Virus record (IMG/VR): IMGVR_UViG_3300031539_000018
Location: 49,346-69,345 of that record
DNA from: an uncultured virus (IMG/VR IMGVR_UViG_3300031539_000018)
Lineage: Duplodnaviria; Heunggongvirae; Uroviricota; Caudoviricetes
DNA: 20,000 nt
Strand: one strand, 5' to 3'
Numbering within the stretch: the first letter of the stretch is position 1; each line of letters begins with the position of its first letter. The notes below the pieces were generated by a model. That model was given only the letters and a program-made list of their open reading frames with translations, had not been told where the DNA came from and searched no databases. The position numbers were made by a program, and so were the translations under genes. This document shows, piece after piece, positions 8,956 through 15,949 of the stretch.

Positions 8956-9220
8956 GGAAGAAATGAGGAAGATCATGAGGGGTGTGCAAGCCATCGGTCG
9001 AAATAATACGGGCGTGGAAGAGGCCGCTCAGCTCCTCGCCGAAGCGATGAAGGAAGATGTGGTGTACGAAAGCACAGGGGTTGCTGACTATGATGGATGC
9101 TGTGTTCGCCTGGGCTGTGGAACTGAGCTTATCTTAGGTCCTGATGATGAGTGGGACATTCTTGACGGCCGGCAGTACCACGTGACCGTGACGGAAGAAC
9201 CTACCAATGACCAACCGTGA
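8945..9220 (+). CDS. Hypothetical protein
   Basis: Overlaps both neighbours in operon fashion; acidic 91 aa ORF. Confidence 0.6.
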   Translation: MVSEEEMRKIMRGVQAIGRNNTGVEEAAQLLAEAMKEDVVYESTGVADYDGCCVRLGCGTELILGPDDEWDILDGRQYHVTVTEEPTNDQP

Positions 9221-10568
9221 TGCTACTTTGGCGATGGACGCGGCAAGGGTGCGGCTCAACTATCTGCGTGGCTACCTTCGGGCTGTGTTGTGGACTATGC
9301 GCATGGTGCCCACTGGAGAGGTGCCCAGTATGGCTATGTCCAAGGACGCGGTGATCTACTACAACCCGGAGGAGGTAGCCAAGTGGCCCTTGGAGGCCTG
9401 CGTGACGGTCCTGTACCATGAGGTGTGCCACTGGATGCGGCGTCACTATGAGCGCATGGCAGACTTCCCGGACGAACAGTGCGCGCTCATTGCGGCGGAA
9501 TTGGAACTCCAGGGTGACATCGAGGATGAGATCAACGGTGACTCGAATCTGGATTGGCCCCCACAGGGATACATTGCACCGGGCAAGCCGCCTTTCGAGA
9601 GCTTGCTCAAGGGCCTCCTGGCTGAGGAGTATTATCGACTTCTGGAGCGGCAACAGCAGCAATCCGGTGGCGCAGGGGGCCAGCAGCAGGGCAAGGGGCG
9701 GCAACAAGGTCAAGGCCAGGGGCAGAGTCAACAGGGGCAGAGTCAACAGCAAGGTAAGGGCCAAGGCAAGGGCCAGCAAGGTCAAGACCAGCAACCAGGC
9801 CAGGGCCAGGGTTCTGTGTCTGATGGGCACTGGAAGGACTGGGAGCAGCAGGACCATCCGGAGGGCATCACTGAGGCCCAGGGGCGGCTCATTGCCCGCA
9901 AGCTGGCCCAGGACATCCAGGAGGCCGCGGAGCGTGATAAGTCGCAGCGGGGCATCGGCTCAGTACCCGGCTGGATGAAGCGTTGGGCAGAGATGCAGCT
10001 TTACTCCAAGGTGCCCTGGTACAAGGTTCTAGACCGCTGGATACGTCAGTCCATTGGGCACGTCCTGGGGTTCTCAGACTACTCATTCAGGACACCGAAC
10101 CGTAGGGCTGCGTTGAGCGGCCTCATCCTGCCGGGTTTGGTGAAGCCTGTGCCGAGGATCGCTGTGGTTCTGGACACATCAGGGTCCATGTCCGGTCATC
10201 AGGTTGGGTTGGCCCTCACGGAGATTGGCGGCGTGCTCAGGGCTATGGGGATGCTGGAGGGCGTGTGGGTACTGGCTACGGATGCGGAGGCCCATACCTG
10301 CCAGCGTGTGTTCAATCCCCGCCAGGTGGACGTTGTGGGCGGTGGGGGAACCATCCTGGAGTCGGGCATTGCACGAGCCATGAAGCTGCGGCCCCGGCCT
10401 GAGATCGTGGTCGTCATCTCGGACTGCCTGAACTATTGGGATGAGGTCAAGCCTGCCAGGGTGAGCATCGTGATCGTGCGTGTGGGCACGGGCAAGCCGC
10501 CTACGTGGGCCGACAAGGTGATTGACGTGGAGGATGTGGTAGAGGACTGGACGGTGTGGACAAGATGA
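9207..10568 (+). CDS. DUF2201-type metallopeptidase-like plus VWA domain protein (MoxR partner)
   Basis: LYHEVCH (HExxH), Gln/Gly-rich linker, MIDAS motif VVLDTSGSMS, GGGGT and VVISD. Confidence 0.88.
   Translation: MTNRDATLAMDAARVRLNYLRGYLRAVLWTMRMVPTGEVPSMAMSKDAVIYYNPEEVAKWPLEACVTVLYHEVCHWMRRHYERMADFPDEQCALIAAELELQGDIEDEINGDSNLDWPPQGYIAPGKPPFESLLKGLLAEEYYRLLERQQQQSGGAGGQQQGKGRQQGQGQGQSQQGQSQQQGKGQGKGQQGQDQQPGQGQGSVSDGHWKDWEQQDHPEGITEAQGRLIARKLAQDIQEAAERDKSQRGIGSVPGWMKRWAEMQLYSKVPWYKVLDRWIRQSIGHVLGFSDYSFRTPNRRAALSGLILPGLVKPVPRIAVVLDTSGSMSGHQVGLALTEIGGVLRAMGMLEGVWVLATDAEAHTCQRVFNPRQVDVVGGGGTILESGIARAMKLRPRPEIVVVISDCLNYWDEVKPARVSIVIVRVGTGKPPTWADKVIDVEDVVEDWTVWTR
9650..9810 (+). repeat. Low-complexity Gln/Gly-coding tract including a 15-bp tandem duplication
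   Basis: CAGGGGCAGAGTCAA twice at 9717-9746 within the QQQQSGG...GQGQ linker. Confidence 0.8.
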
Positions 10569-12201: not shown

Positions 12202-12506
12202 AGGAGACCGAGGTTCAGTTGAAGGATGTAGATATGAAGGTGGTGGACCCGCATCTTACGCTGGTGCAGTCGTTGGACCTGAAGAACAGGCTGGCTAGCG
12301 CCATGCAGGGCATCGGGAGGCAGGGTTTCGCCGATATCCTGGGCATGGGGCGACCGCGCTGGTGGCGTTGGCGGACCAAGGGCCAGGCCCCGGTGAAGGT
12401 GGAGGAGTACCTGCACATCATCGCCCGGTTCCCGGAGCTGCGGGGCAAGGTATGGCGGCACCTGTTGCACCGGGCGCAGACGGAGATTGATAGCAGGAAG
12501 GGATAG
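12198..12506 (+). CDS. Putative Cro/XRE-like helix-turn-helix regulator
   Basis: ATGA overlap; GRQGFADILGMGRPRWWRWRTKGQAP fits the A-x-x-L-G...W-x-x-G-x-x-P HTH pattern. Confidence 0.6.
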   Translation: MKETEVQLKDVDMKVVDPHLTLVQSLDLKNRLASAMQGIGRQGFADILGMGRPRWWRWRTKGQAPVKVEEYLHIIARFPELRGKVWRHLLHRAQTEIDSRKG

Positions 12507-12509
12507 GTT

Positions 12510-12875
12510 GTGAAGCAGGTACTCGTGTTGCCTACCTTTGAAATTCGCAACGATGGTGTATGCCGTAAATGTCTAAAGGAGTTGTCCTGCCACAATGATG
12601 ATGCCATTGTGATAAGGGTGCAAAATATATATTGGTCTGGTTTCAAGAGTCACGTTTTCAATATTGTGAAGGTGGCAAATCCTTGGAACCATTCGAATCT
12701 TACATGGCGCGTCTACGGTCAACCGTTGTGTGGGTGTACATTGTCTAGTATACGAAGAGATGAGCCCCCTTATGAGTTGCTGTGGCTGCCAAGGTTGTTT
12801 CAGTTCGTCAACCCGGAGGACCGGCAGGCATTAGAAGAGGCGTTGGTATTGATGGCCCTGGCGGGGGAGATGTGA
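12510..12875 (+). CDS. Hypothetical protein (visibly more AT-rich than its neighbours)
   Basis: GTG start 3 nt after the upstream stop; CRKC and C-x-C; 121 aa. Confidence 0.6.
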   Translation: MKQVLVLPTFEIRNDGVCRKCLKELSCHNDDAIVIRVQNIYWSGFKSHVFNIVKVANPWNHSNLTWRVYGQPLCGCTLSSIRRDEPPYELLWLPRLFQFVNPEDRQALEEALVLMALAGEM

Positions 12876-12877
12876 TG

Positions 12878-12915
12878 CTTTCTTTTGCTCCCAAAAGGTT
12901 TTAGCGATCTATAAT
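12878..12915 (+). promoter_or_regulatory. Repeated palindrome plus -10 promoter motif, copy 1
   Basis: CTTTCTTTTGCTCCCAAAAG-N12-TATAAT, with the same layout at 16465-16502. Confidence 0.75.
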
Positions 12916-12937
12916 GAGTGAGTGAAGTAAATGAGGC

Positions 12938-12966
12938 TTGACAAACCGGAAGGAATCTGCTATACT
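12938..12966 (+). promoter_or_regulatory. sigma70-type promoter upstream of tnpB
   Basis: TTGACA (12938-12943), 17 bp, TATACT (12961-12966). Confidence 0.85.
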
Positions 12967-12972
12967 GATAAT

Positions 12973-13064
12973 GCTACAGGTGCGGCGTGGTTGTTTTGTT
13001 ATAGAAGGGGTCATGCAGGCCACGCGCACCTGTAGCGGGACGCAAGGCAATGTGTGACCCCTTT
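12973..13064 (+). ncRNA. Putative pseudoknotted leader RNA of unknown class
   Basis: 17-bp stem 12973-12990/13020-13036 with one bulge; loop 13004-13017 is complementary to 13051-13064 (14 bp including G-U pairs). Confidence 0.6.
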
Positions 13065-13075
13065 GACATAAGGCG

Positions 13076-14287
13076 ATGATTGTACAGAAGAGCCATAGGA
13101 TACAACTGAGACCCAACAATGAGCACCGAAGCGGTTTCAACCGCTGGGTTGGTGCTTACCGTTGGACTTACAACTGGGCGCTAGAACAGAAGAAGACAGC
13201 CTATGAGCAAGAGGGCAAGTCACTGAGTAAGTACGGTGTGCAGAAACTCTTGACTATTGAGAAACACACGCTGGAAAGGGCGTGGCTCAATGATATCCTG
13301 CGAGACACGCTTGTCAATGCAATATGGAACATGGACAGGGCATACCAGAACTTCTTCCGGCGGGTCAAGAATGGAGAGGCCAAAAAGGGTTTCCCAAAGT
13401 TCAAGTCAAGACGGACGGCGCGGCGCGTTTTCCACGTCACGGCGTACCTCGTGCAATTGAGCGAAGACCGACGGAGCGTCAAGTTGCCTAAACTTGGATG
13501 GGTTAGGATGAGCAAGGCCCTGCGATTTGAGGGCAAGATGGTTGGGACAGTGGCTGTCAGTGAAGAGGCGGGGCGGTGGTATGCATCCTTCGTCGTTGAG
13601 ACTGAGATACCCGATCCTCCGGATCGTAGTGCTGACCCTGTGGTGGGCATCGACGTCGGTATCAAAACGCTAATGACGCTTTCTGATGGGAAGCGATATG
13701 AGAATCCGAAGGCTACCTATGAGCTAGAGAAGCTACTGGCGCGGTCACAGCGCCAACTATCCTGCAAGACTAAGGGGAGTAAGCGGCGGGCTAGGGCAAA
13801 GCTGAGAGTCCAGCGGATACAGAAGCGGATCAAGGATGTGCGGGTAAATGCGGCACATCAAGCCACGGCGGAGGTGACTAGGGACTACGGCCTCGTAGCT
13901 ATGGAGGACTTGAATGTCAAAGGCATGGTCAAGAATCGTCACTTGGCAAAGGCCGTGTCAGACTCCAATTTCAATCGGTTGCGCCAGCAGTTGACGTACA
14001 AGACCGCGTGGAGCGGCAGTAAACTGAGGCTCGTGGACCGTTGGTTCCCGTCCAGCAAGCTGTGCTCTGAGTGCGGTTGCATCAATGATAATCTGACACT
14101 TTCAGATAGGAGGTGGACTTGCGATTGTGGGGCTGTTCATGACAGGGACCTAAACGCTGCCCAGAATATTCTAGCGGCGGCGCTAAAGTTGGCCGACGAA
14201 TCGGCGGTCACTGGGCGTGGAGGGATAGGGGCCTCAAGTCCTCCCGATGAAGCGTCAAGCGGGCAGCAGGAGGTGATAGATGCATAA
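13076..14287 (+). CDS. tnpB: RNA-guided endonuclease TnpB (IS200/IS605/IS607 superfamily), catalytic motifs intact, no adjacent TnpA
   Basis: N-terminal HRIQLRPN...YRWTYNWAL, GFPKFKSR, LPKLGWVR; RuvC-I VGIDVGIK, RuvC-II AMEDLNV, Zn finger CSECG...CDCG, RuvC-III HDRDLNAAQNI. Confidence 0.95.
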   Translation: MIVQKSHRIQLRPNNEHRSGFNRWVGAYRWTYNWALEQKKTAYEQEGKSLSKYGVQKLLTIEKHTLERAWLNDILRDTLVNAIWNMDRAYQNFFRRVKNGEAKKGFPKFKSRRTARRVFHVTAYLVQLSEDRRSVKLPKLGWVRMSKALRFEGKMVGTVAVSEEAGRWYASFVVETEIPDPPDRSADPVVGIDVGIKTLMTLSDGKRYENPKATYELEKLLARSQRQLSCKTKGSKRRARAKLRVQRIQKRIKDVRVNAAHQATAEVTRDYGLVAMEDLNVKGMVKNRHLAKAVSDSNFNRLRQQLTYKTAWSGSKLRLVDRWFPSSKLCSECGCINDNLTLSDRRWTCDCGAVHDRDLNAAQNILAAALKLADESAVTGRGGIGASSPPDEASSGQQEVIDA

Positions 14288-14322
14288 GACCCGCAACCCC
14301 GAATTGACGGGGTCCTCATTCG
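14190..14322 (+). ncRNA. Putative omegaRNA/reRNA-like scaffold overlapping the tnpB 3' end
   Basis: Hairpin GCCGA-CGAA-TCGGC, a GGGCGTGGAG...CTCCCGATGAAGCGTC segment resembling TnpB right-end RNAs, and hairpin ACCCCG-AATTGA-CGGGGT. Boundaries are inferred. Confidence 0.5.
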
Positions 14323-14346
14323 CGTGGGCAATGGCTATTGTGAAGG

Positions 14347-14624
14347 GTGCACCCCATGCGCATGTGGGGGATTCGCGCAGATGCGGGTCTGAAACGACGA
14401 CCCCAAACGTGCACCCCATGCGCATGTGGGGGATTCGTACGGCAAGTATTGCCAGAAGCCGCAGAAACCCGTGCACCCCATGCGCATGTGGGGGATTCGT
14501 TGGCCCTGTGCTTGCGGCTGCGCAGGACGAAGTGCACCCCATGCGCATGTGGGGGATTCGTCAAATGACAAGCGATTGCACGCCAGCATACGTGTACCCC
14601 ATGCGTATGTGAGGGGGGGATTCG
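14347..14624 (+). CRISPR. Mini CRISPR-like array: four identical 29-bp repeats, one degenerate terminal repeat, four spacers
   Basis: GTGCACCCCATGCGCATGTGGGGGATTCG at 14347, 14409, 14471 and 14532; degenerate GTGTACCCCATGCGTATGTGAGGGGGGGATTCG at 14592-14624; unique spacers of 33, 33, 32 and 31 bp. The CCCC...GGGG stem recalls type I-E repeats. Confidence 0.93.
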
Positions 14625-14635
14625 GTGGAGACTAA

Positions 14636-15949
14636 ATGAGCGAACCCTATGATGTGGACGTAGAGAGGTCGGCCCTCGGCAGCTTGCTCCTGGACCCCGC
14701 ACTCTTGGCTGAGGCTGAGGCTGTGTTGCTCCCAGAGGACTTCTACCGGGAGGCGCACAGCACAGTCTACGGGGCCATGCTGGAGCTGTGGCGCTCAGGT
14801 TCGGCGCTGGATTACACGCTGCTATGCCGGGCCTTGGAGGACCGCGGACACTTGGAGGCTGTGGGCGGGACGGCATACGTGGCTTCGCTCATTGAGGCCA
14901 CACCGACCAGTGCTCATTTCGCGTCCTATGCCCGCGAGGTTCTGGCCCTGGCGAATCGGCGCCGCTTGATAGTGGCGGGTATTGAGTTGCAGAACATGGC
15001 CTGCGAGGGCGGCTACGGTGTGCCGGAACTCCTGGAGCAGGCTCAGGTCTTGCTCAATCAGGTTTCTGTGAGGGCCGATTTGCAAGGAGCGGTAGTGCCT
15101 TTCGAGAGTGCTTTGGAGGCCTACTGGAGTGCATTGGCGATGGAGCTGTCGGGCGCGGTGACGCGGATTCCCTTTGGGTTCCGAGACCTGGACTCATTGG
15201 TTGGGGGATTGAAGCCGGGGGACCTGTGCTATATCGGGGGCCGGCCAAGTATGGGCAAAACTACTTTGTGCCTGCAAGCGGCCCTGAACCTGGCTAAGTT
15301 GGGCGTGGGTCCGACGGTGGTGTTCTCGGTGGAGAGCACGGAACCGGAGTTGGCAGGTCGCATCCTTGGCTATGCCACTGGGGTGACCTCGGACGCCATG
15401 CGGAAGCGCACGGTGGATGTAGAGGCTATGTCCTGGGTAGGGCAGGTTGCGTCTGTGCTGGAGATCCCCGTGTTGCTGCGGGAGGATTACGACCTCTCAC
15501 CGGCGGGGATTGATGCGGCGCTCACGTCCATGCCCCAGCCTCCCCGGCTGGTGGTGGTGGACCACGTGCACCGTATGGAGGGGGGCCGCAGGTTCAGGGA
15601 CCGTCGGGAGGAGGTGACGTACATCTCGCGGCGGTTAAAGTCCCTGGCGCAGAAGCATTCGGTCCCGGTGGTGGCGGTATGCACCCTGAGCCGGATGGTG
15701 GAGAACCGCAAGCCACCGAGGCCCATGCTGGCGGATTTGAAGGAATCGGGAGACCTGGAGCATGATGCGGACGTGGTGATTATGCTGTACTGGGCTGGTC
15801 ACTACGATTCGGAAAGCCCCAGGCAGTTTGTGACCGAGGCCATTGTGGCCAAGCACCGGGACGGTCCCACGGGCACGGCGTATCTTCGGCGCGGGGGCCA
15901 GGGGCAATTGAGCGACCTGGTGTGTAAGAATGATTTGATGATGCTTTAA
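14636..15949 (+). CDS. dnaB: Replicative DNA helicase, DnaB family
   Basis: N-terminal ERSALGSLL...PEDFYREAH; Walker A GGRPSMGKTT; VVVDHV; LADLKESGDLEHDADVV; IVAKHRDGPTG. Confidence 0.97.
   Translation: MSEPYDVDVERSALGSLLLDPALLAEAEAVLLPEDFYREAHSTVYGAMLELWRSGSALDYTLLCRALEDRGHLEAVGGTAYVASLIEATPTSAHFASYAREVLALANRRRLIVAGIELQNMACEGGYGVPELLEQAQVLLNQVSVRADLQGAVVPFESALEAYWSALAMELSGAVTRIPFGFRDLDSLVGGLKPGDLCYIGGRPSMGKTTLCLQAALNLAKLGVGPTVVFSVESTEPELAGRILGYATGVTSDAMRKRTVDVEAMSWVGQVASVLEIPVLLREDYDLSPAGIDAALTSMPQPPRLVVVDHVHRMEGGRRFRDRREEVTYISRRLKSLAQKHSVPVVAVCTLSRMVENRKPPRPMLADLKESGDLEHDADVVIMLYWAGHYDSESPRQFVTEAIVAKHRDGPTGTAYLRRGGQGQLSDLVCKNDLMML

Follow-up and report, generated by a model that had tools for sequence, protein, structure and literature searches.

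TnpB proteins and their CRISPR-like derivatives have been intensively studied as compact tools for genome editing and as the proteins from which Cas12 descends, and attention has been directed almost wholly to the guide RNA located at the 3' end of the gene. Guide scaffolds of the TnpB/Cas12-type protein family contain a pseudoknot. Structured RNAs are also known from the other end of messenger RNAs (mRNAs). The leader of tnpA in the insertion sequence (IS) IS200 forms a hairpin over the ribosome-binding site, is transcribed from a weak promoter and is accompanied by an antisense RNA, while the mRNAs of T4 gene 32 and of rpsO (encoding S15) carry an H-type pseudoknot near their 5' end and are autoregulated by the nucleic-acid-binding protein that they encode; in rpsO the pseudoknot and two hairpins alternate. 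In phages of the T4 type, a number of homing-endonuclease genes (I-TevI, I-TevII, I-TevIII, segB, mobE and seg43(25)) are described as being controlled by leader hairpins (PMC2988022). For TnpB genes, arrays and omega-RNAs located downstream of the gene are presented as the rule (PMC10691335), and a full-text literature search returned no conserved structured RNA described at the 5' end of these genes. The analysis reported here concerns a stretch of 20,000 nucleotides (nt) from an uncultured virus of the Caudoviricetes (the window), which is the final 20 kb (positions 49,346 to 69,345) of the 69-kb IMG/VR record IMGVR_UViG_3300031539_000018. In this window, a segment of about 92 nt (12973-13064) between a near-perfect promoter and a tnpB gene is, as judged from sequence comparison, a conserved folded RNA that has not been catalogued.

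The element, which lies on the + strand as do all features given below unless stated otherwise, is preceded by the hexamers TTGACA (-35; 12938-12943) and TATACT (-10; 12961-12966), spaced by 17 nt and matching the consensus at 11 of 12 positions, with TG ahead of the -10 hexamer. The promoter scans looked for sigma-70-like sites, a consensus that may not be the phage's own promoter type, and returned five promoter-like sites in the scanned region against 1.5 ± 1.0 in shuffled sequences. The predicted transcription start lies at about 12971-12973. The first helix, S1, begins 6 nt past the -10 box and joins GCTACAGGTGCGGCGTGG (12973-12990) to CCACGCGCACCTGTAGC (13020-13036); the pair list read from the sequence contains 17 pairs, 17 of them Watson-Crick, and a single bulged G at 12985. 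Within the 3' part of the S1 loop lies the 5' arm of the second helix, S2 (GAAGGGGTCATGCA, 13004-13017), whose partner TGTGTGACCCCTTT (13051-13064) is found beyond the hairpin. S2 has 14 pairs, 11 Watson-Crick and three G-U. The arms are connected by three linkers: the U-rich L1 (TTGTTTTGTTATA, 12991-13003) between the 5' arms of S1 and S2, the GG junction L2 (13018-13019) between the S2 5' arm and the S1 3' arm, and L3 (GGGACGCAAGGCAA, 13037-13050), in which CAAGGCA is kept among the leaders of the sequence group called clade A and in a second copy of the element described below. From the end of S2 to the ATG of tnpB at 13076 there remain 11 nt (13065-13075), a presumably single-stranded tail with a weak and closely spaced Shine-Dalgarno-like AAGG. 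Both helices, with their 17 bp and one bulge and their 14 bp and three G-U pairs, had been proposed from the sequence in an earlier annotation (the original prediction) and are confirmed to the base, and the 6 nt from the -10 box to S1 and the 11 nt from S2 to the start codon agree with the sequence and the promoter scan. A variant contig from a soil metagenome (run X2, record 14) resembles the window starting precisely at 12973 and differs upstream, which places the 5' boundary of the conserved RNA at this position.

A 106-nt stretch of this locus folds at -45.9 kcal/mol, compared with -33.8 ± 2.9 kcal/mol for 200 dinucleotide shuffles (z-score -4.2), none of which is as stable. In terms of contiguous pairs the two helices reach 13+14, and in a crude descriptor scan the helices of 429 gene-body control regions never exceeded 11+11. 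That the RNA resembles no riboswitch or ribozyme, as the original prediction had noted, holds at both gathering and permissive thresholds: Rfam 15 gives no gathering-score match in the window, and at E-values up to 10 the only match overlapping the leader is a chance-level microRNA match. Rfam likewise gives no match on the leaders of seven homologous loci, on the second copy in the window's own phage or on the leader of a second TnpB gene in a related phage.

Relatives of the locus were found by protein-guided searches of virus and metagenome contigs, and the percentages given with them are TnpB protein identities. The leader is present in all relatives with upstream DNA at 100, 98, 92, 89, 80 and 53% identity. 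Among five distinct clade-A leaders aligned with MAFFT, 94.8% of the cells pair and seven pairs have changed on both sides, a result that 0 of 500 shuffles reach. A model-guided alignment of six leaders (clade A and the second copy), which is fitted to S1 and hence biased towards it, has 94.6% of 185 cells paired and both-sided changes in 10 of 31 pairs; none of 500 shuffles matches this, and slid controls pair at 30-50%. The changes fall in both helices, 6 of the 17 S1 pairs having changed on both sides (96.0% of cells pairing) and 4 of the 14 S2 pairs on both sides and five on one side only (92.9% of cells pairing). A finer view is provided by the related locus L004, which differs from the window at only 10 positions between 12918 and 16284, seven of them in 13043-13057. 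This variable patch comprises the end of L3 (13043-13050) and the upstream half of the S2 3' arm (13051-13057). Four of the differences lie inside the arm, three keeping the pairing and the terminal one breaking it, and the arm sequence of L004 recurs in locus L093. The patch accordingly looks like the product of allele exchange, and it shows outer S2 to be free to vary provided that pairing is kept.

Further from the window, the layout is kept while the sequence is not. A second group, clade B, consists of the leaders of locus L092 (53%), locus L033 (39%) and a second TnpB gene in the phage of L033, which share the layout with different helix sequences. Every cell of a 13-column S1 core and of 10 S2 columns pairs in this clade, and the middle of S2 holds a kept tandem mismatch (G/A, A/G; C/A, A/G in the third member); the count of both-sided changes in clade B is generous, as the register of the third member was chosen by hand. 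A GGCGG in L1 of clade B is complementary to a CCGCC in L3 (4-5 pairs) and is invariant in the three sequences; it could represent a third helix or an alternative pairing. Loci L097 (39%) and L113 (41%) show the same architecture in unrelated sequence. Over nine TnpB-linked leaders, the S1 cells comprise 144 Watson-Crick pairs, four G-U, one A-C and one other, and the S2 cells 102 Watson-Crick pairs, 19 G-U, no A-C and six others. Both helices together thus contain 23 G-U against one A-C among 277 cells, and this excess of G-U over A-C identifies the folding molecule as + strand RNA. On this comparative evidence both helices are real, each with its own support from covariation. The topology is that of an H-type pseudoknot, the S1 loop pairing 3' of the hairpin, with covariation in both helices.

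These counts bear directly on the possibility that the palindrome acts as DNA, i.e., as an IS200/IS605 left-end hairpin recognised in single-stranded form by TnpA. The gene that follows is an ISDra2-like tnpB, the ends of IS200/IS605 elements bear imperfect palindromes, and from about 12918 on the tnpB module is suddenly much closer in sequence to L004, which places the cassette inside the exchanged module. However, S2 depends on G-U pairs (19 against no A-C), which neither a DNA hairpin nor the opposite strand can use, and a second copy of S1 was found neither in the window between 12500 and 14900 nor at the right ends of L033, L097 and L113. A loop of 29-80 nt with a second helix is moreover unlike known end hairpins, there is no TnpA beside tnpB (two upstream open reading frames are Pfam-negative, and a DnaB-type helicase lies downstream), and the same element precedes an HNH gene. 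A transposon end hairpin was accordingly rejected on the missing right-end copy and the G-U-dependent S2, and its probability is considered minimal. A leader peptide was also rejected, given that an ATG/GTG frame running through the clade-A leader is not kept in L097 or clade B and that compensatory changes favour RNA. The Rfam family, the IS end and the lack of helix conservation that the original prediction had named as findings against itself were all looked for; the homologous leaders have both helices conserved and covarying, and the prediction survived on each count.

The element is not restricted to TnpB. R1, a covariance model of S1 that leaves S2 out, matches a second copy in the window's own phage genome at G000:C1:445-564 (52.5 bits, E-value 1.1e-15). 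This diverged copy forms part of a promoter-plus-leader cassette outside the window (G000:C1:415-548; locus L378 415-548), which is followed by an open reading frame (ORF) of 234 amino acids with an HNH endonuclease motif (L378 630-1334). The match of this ORF to Pfam HNH (20.4 bits) is just below the cut-off of 21.4, and its NCBIfam matches are weak and limited to the HNH region. The promoter of the HNH-linked copy reads TTGACA-17-TATATT, and S1 (GCTAC...GTAGC) starts 6 nt later; S1 has 17 pairs with two bulges, S2 has 13 pairs, and L3 shares the CAAGGCA. Homology between the TnpB-linked and HNH-linked cassettes extends from the -35 box to the end of S2, and the shared unit is therefore the promoter with its leader, common to two unrelated nuclease genes. 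The HNH-linked cassette is also found in a 143-kb virus record (G001). In the whole 69-kb phage, nine promoter-like sites (at least 10 of 12 matches) were found, and the S1/S2 architecture occurs at exactly two of them, those of TnpB and HNH. A similar association is observed in the 100-kb phage that holds L033 (G004). This phage has two TnpB genes (minus strand, at about 44383 and 81937 of G004:C1; loci L033 and L391 1334-2737), the second encoding 413 amino acids, and their leaders are of the clade-B type, each with its own consensus promoter. Of its 29 promoter-like sites, two have convincing leaders, both before the TnpB genes.

A search of 157 loci with R1 for further members recovered clade A only, and pattern scans of IMG/VR, checked by eye and with R1, gave only chance matches apart from the contigs already known. 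Among HNH relatives at 32% identity, the single one inspected (L384) is without a leader, and inspection by eye revealed none in Thermobifida phage P1312 or in an uncultured 485-kb phage, whose TnpB proteins are 38-40% identical. In 80 loci from a species-genome collection, which are at most 41% identical, upstream matches to the descriptor are weak. The crude descriptor scan itself hit 35 of 216 upstream regions and 13 of 429 gene-body controls, a ratio that is not used as evidence, because most of the 15 additional matches inspected are A+T-rich chance stems.

What the leaders have in common is a fixed layout. Each of the nine TnpB-linked leaders has a promoter-like box upstream, with S1 starting 4-7 nt past its -10 hexamer; agreement with the consensus is 11-12 of 12 positions for clade A and for L092, L033 and L113, and the L097 box is a TATAAT recognised by eye. 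L1 measures 13-45 nt, with a recurrent U-rich run (TTTTGTT-like) in clade A, clade B and L113, and L3 measures 7-15 nt in the nine leaders. L2, which must be short in an H-type pseudoknot with stacked helices, measures 1-3 nt in seven of the nine; the remaining two, L084 and L113, have 8 and 11 nt, and the HNH-linked copy and the second leader of G004 have 5 and 3 nt. The tail between S2 and the ATG has 11-20 nt in the nine leaders and 19 nt in the second leader of G004, and its Shine-Dalgarno-like motif is weak or oddly spaced.

A pseudoknot just upstream of a start codon, with a U-rich L1 that might fit into the S2 groove, is reminiscent of the SAM-II and preQ1-II riboswitch classes. A ligand-sensing riboswitch built on an H-type pseudoknot is nevertheless very unlikely here. 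Unpaired nucleotides are barely conserved between the clades, the helices (13-24 pairs) are far longer than in known pseudoknot riboswitches, no Rfam match was obtained, and no metabolic logic ties a small molecule to both TnpB and HNH nucleases.

The position of the element, the lack of a terminator, the linkage to nuclease genes and the precedent of the T4 homing-endonuclease hairpins together lead to a reading in which the RNA functions in cis. The element may thus be a portable cassette, made of a promoter and a pseudoknot leader, that selfish nuclease genes of phages carry and that acts on both the stability and the translation of the mRNA, a reading to which an even chance is given. A terminator scan (loop limit 3-8 nt) found no classical terminator between leader and ORF, so that the leader most likely belongs to the nuclease mRNA; a hairpin-plus-T-tract score falls below zero for all 10 leaders scored (-37.5 to -0.8). 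Most likely, too, the leader controls expression of the nuclease rather than serving as a partner of the guide RNA. In the proposed pathway, a near-consensus sigma-70 promoter would drive a structured 5' leader of about 92 nt ahead of the nuclease gene. The stable S1 hairpin, flush with the predicted 5' end, would be transcribed first and would be too stable to open unaided, and the 3' part of its loop would pair downstream, with S2 forming atop S1 and both helices coexisting in an H-type pseudoknot. Such a knot is the simplest reconciliation of the early formation of S1, the absence of bases shared with S2 and the covariation of S2, and the short L2 and long L1 fit it. The paired 5' end may shield the long transcript, which in the case of TnpB would also bear the guide scaffold and the array at its 3' end, from decay initiated at the 5' end. 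Ribosome loading would be held down by the base of S2, which lies 11-20 nt from the AUG with a poor ribosome-binding site after it, and the net effect would be abundant RNA and little nuclease.

Several observations weigh against this cis-acting reading. A search for RNA runs containing the stretch returned none, the four runs compared with it being DNA contigs; the start site, the 3' end and the fold are predicted, and a near-consensus promoter is ill-suited to a device meant only for low expression. The Shine-Dalgarno-like bases lie 3' of S2 and outside the conserved helices in 9 of 9 leaders; they are covered only by a non-conserved, G-U-rich extension, and only in a fold in which S2 forms a rod. 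In the HNH-linked copy, S2 is followed by an extra 12-bp hairpin and the ORF starts about 81 nt downstream, and the tight spacing to the start codon is hence not universal. L3 of L033 would have to cross about 19 S1 pairs with only 8 nt, which strains a fully stacked pseudoknot, and the tail that follows S2 has 4-7 T in 12 nt, a composition that would still allow partial termination. The leader is also dispensable for the nuclease, as it is missing in L086 (74%) and in L087 and L090 (69-70%). L087 and L090 carry other leaders in place of the knotted one, and in L086 a cluster of four tRNA genes (Arg, Met, Leu and Leu; L086 24-653) ends 28 nt ahead of the TnpB gene. Finally, in 10 of 10 leaders the nested folds with S1 and the nested folds with S2 lie only 0.7-6.2 kcal/mol apart, and for 9 of 10 the prediction leaves the start region (-12 to +3) less paired when S1 is imposed than when S2 is, properties that would suit a two-state switch as well as a knot.

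In such a two-state leader, S1 and an S2 rod would be mutually exclusive. With S1 formed, the start region would be open; without it, the S2 hairpin would form and the freed upstream sequence would pair with the ribosome-binding site and the AUG, or, in an attenuator form, S2 and the U-rich tail that follows it would stop some of the polymerases. The balance would be set by a protein, an RNA, the ribosome or temperature. Besides the near-equal energies and the accessibility of the start region, this proposal is favoured by the isolated hairpin energies of S1 and S2, which track each other from -17 to -50 kcal/mol, and by the minimum-free-energy fold, which switches form among close homologues. 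The matched energies may, however, merely reflect base composition, and accessibility differs only slightly between the two states (0.02-0.39), with L092 showing the opposite trend. As S1 and S2 have no bases in common in their arms, there is no path for strand exchange, S1 (-17 to -50 kcal/mol) is the first to form and would trap the RNA, and the short L2 in every case sets the S2 5' arm right against the S1 3' arm, for which a plain switch has no need. The attenuator form faces the negative terminator score in 10 of 10 leaders and a terminator scan that finds none at this place. The two-state leader is consequently regarded as unlikely, albeit worth keeping in view.

A trans-acting function was considered as well. 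The promoter could produce, in excess, a stable small RNA of about 95 nt, the nuclease mRNA arising by read-through, and this RNA might bind the nuclease and restrain or assist it, as an RNA antitoxin would, or act on host or phage targets. The order of promoter, knotted RNA and nuclease gene resembles that of type III toxin-antitoxin loci. In line with such a role are promoters that either match at 11-12 of 12 positions or have an extended -10, in all five lineages, in the HNH-linked copy and at the second TnpB gene of G004, a 5' end flush with a stable hairpin, the U-rich stretch after S2, and the occurrence of the same cassette ahead of two unrelated nucleases. Against it, S2 is not followed by a classical terminator, the spacing of 11-20 nt to the ATG in TnpB-linked leaders points to coupling with translation, and close TnpB relatives manage without a leader. 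No copy lacking a nuclease gene was found in four related virus records beyond the window's own or in 80 and 76 pattern-selected virus loci. The leader is present in single copy with no direct repeat found, in contrast to the tandem repeats of type III antitoxins, and no complementarity to the guide region was detected. A small RNA is thus judged distinctly unlikely. A related and speculative proposal, to which a slender chance is given, is that the knot is a portable RNA 'governor' exchanged among selfish phage nucleases, both the RNA-guided TnpB and the protein-guided HNH type. It would do more than stabilise passively and might work as an operator that is bistable or responds to a protein, or as a nuclease-binding small RNA produced in excess; nuclease output would then depend on how the infection stands, or the nuclease would be kept neutralised until required, in the manner of an RNA antitoxin for homing nucleases.

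The gene that follows the leader (13076-14287) encodes a TnpB-like protein of 403 amino acids closely related to ISDra2 TnpB. It matches the Pfam families OrfB_IS605 (8.4e-24), Cas12f1-like_TNB (4.9e-22) and HTH_OrfB_IS605 (4.2e-13) and the NCBIfam family NF040570 guided_TnpB (294.7 bits, cut-off 100), and the closest solved structure is that of ISDra2 TnpB (8bf8; E-value 9.1e-72 over residues 1-383). From the end of the gene to the first repeat of an array runs a guide-RNA scaffold-like region (14249-14346), of which 14249-14315 weakly matches the Rfam family Transposase-2 RNA (25.3 bits, below the gathering score of 42.7; E-value 0.019) and which is strongly conserved in L085, L087, L088, L090 and L091. 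By this comparison, the guide scaffold sits at 14249-14346 and not in the leader. It is followed by a mini CRISPR-like array of five 29-nt repeats (14347-14625; fifth repeat degenerate, period 60-62 nt, spacers of 31-33 nt) found by repeat search, which is part of the TnpB module and not of the leader. TnpB genes with small downstream arrays have already been described as V-U-type variants (PMC10691335), and the array module is therefore not new.

The original prediction had left open whether the leader is a cis-regulatory element or an accessory RNA of this module, comparable to a trans-activating CRISPR RNA (tracrRNA) or a short-complementarity untranslated RNA (scoutRNA), which would pair with the repeat so that guides are matured or loaded. 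The RNA adjoins a module of effector and array, its predicted promoter is strong, and by eye the S1 3' arm (13020-13033) matches the core of the repeat at 11 of 14 positions, so that the S1 5' arm could pair with the repeat; the best repeat duplex overall is formed by the antisense of 13005-13050, at -36.7 kcal/mol. On the + strand, however, the best partner of the repeat between 12850 and 14346 reaches only -29.0 kcal/mol, compared with -29.9 ± 2.5 kcal/mol for 30 shuffled repeats (minimum -37.4), and in six of six lineages the leader pairs no better with the guide region than shuffled sequences do (z-scores -0.8 to +2.0). The repeat of L097 is quite different, and by eye its leader has no complement to the GC-rich core (z-score 0.08). 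Leader and array also occur independently of each other. L087 and L090 have arrays without the leader, L033 has the leader with an ordinary omega-RNA-like 3' end and no array, and the HNH-linked leader has no array. The guide scaffold, for its part, lies at the 3' end of the gene, the usual place for TnpB. A tracrRNA- or scoutRNA-like role is thus largely refuted by the absence of an anti-repeat and the occurrence independent of arrays, and it is deemed extremely unlikely. Of the two interpretations offered, the cis-regulatory leader is the one that stands, with the lack of an Rfam match, the covariation and the fixed place before the start codon in its favour, whereas the accessory RNA fails on complementarity and on independence from arrays. 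The likeness between 13020-13033 and the repeat core at 14354-14367 (CCAYGCGCAY) is not seen in L097; it is consequently taken as chance, which is probable among G+C-rich palindromes.

A number of further observations concern the array, the borders of the module and its neighbours. The relatives L087, L088, L090 and L091 carry from two to at least six repeats, L085 (77%) carries none, and the array of L005 has other spacers. Short arrays with repeats of the CCC-A-YGCGCG type, at TnpB identities of 37-41%, are present in L011 (3250-3420), L007 (1835-1985) and L097 (1931-2019); the L007 array is upstream of the gene that was matched and may instead be associated with a neighbouring gene. Spacers of the window's array match the phage genome outside the array over at most 12 contiguous bases (longest imperfect match 15 of 16), and they do not match any of the fetched loci outside arrays. 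Self-targeting or autoregulatory spacers were rejected on this absence of matches in the phage genome and the fetched loci. A 33-nt promoter-like repeat, an inverted repeat CTTTTG/CAAAAG followed by TATAAT, occurs twice in the phage (12883-12915 and 16470-16502); in soil metagenome contigs it has a depth of 3-5 times that of its flanks, and the assemblies branch at 12915-12918. Downstream, the gene for a DnaB-type helicase starts at 14636 and is the next gene. Just upstream, two ORFs (12510-12875 and 12215-12646) gave no Pfam family, and further upstream of the leader an ORF at 9207-10568 contains DUF2201_N (putative metallopeptidase) and VWA-like DUF2201 domains. On the minus strand, a promoter-like site from 13317 to 13290 (TTGACA-16-TATCAT, 11 of 12 matches) points at the start of tnpB and the leader. 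An antisense RNA was nevertheless rejected: among 11 loci checked, L093 and L086, the latter without a leader, are the only ones to have it at the corresponding point of the gene, a weaker site lies nearby in L097, and seven other loci have none at that position. The site is probably a chance match.

With two covarying helices in several independent lineages, the leader is a clean candidate for a new RNA family. If it were true that it sets the ratio of nuclease to guide or restrains toxicity, it would represent a natural part for controlling the expression of such enzymes. The homologous cassettes of TnpB and HNH in one phage suggest regulatory modules common to selfish nucleases, and the leader would extend the hairpin control known for T4 homing endonucleases to a new RNA architecture and to RNA-guided nucleases.

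Compared with the known systems, the leader shares with tracrRNAs, scoutRNAs and omega-RNAs that it is a non-coding RNA beside a TnpB/Cas12-type effector, but it lies on the wrong side of the gene. Like the leader of IS200 tnpA and other transposase mRNA leaders, it is a structured 5' untranslated region in the IS200/IS605 superfamily that is assumed to damp expression; unlike in IS200, the gene is tnpB, the promoter is near-consensus and the candidate antisense promoter (13317 to 13290) is not conserved. The leaders of gene 32 and rpsO resemble it in having an H-type knot, after which the ribosome-binding site lies in a stretch without structure; their helices, however, are short (4-8 pairs) and there is no sequence likeness. 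The T4 homing-endonuclease leaders also consist of structured RNA directly upstream of a selfish phage nuclease gene and are thought to limit its production, and in seg43(25) a very stable structure ends just before the ribosome-binding site and leaves the site uncovered, as here (PMC2988022). As depicted in that source, the T4 leaders are hairpins of simple form; for the most part they sequester the ribosome-binding site, and they act in concert with a nested late or middle promoter. In contrast, the present leader has two covarying helices in a pseudoknot topology, and a consensus sigma-70 promoter of its own precedes the entire structure; its ribosome-binding site lies outside the conserved helices, which hold no Shine-Dalgarno sequence, and it is found with both an RNA-guided TnpB and an HNH enzyme, without sequence relation to the T4 hairpins. 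The leader would, in all, represent a new architecture of a device already known, namely leader RNA that controls selfish phage nuclease genes.

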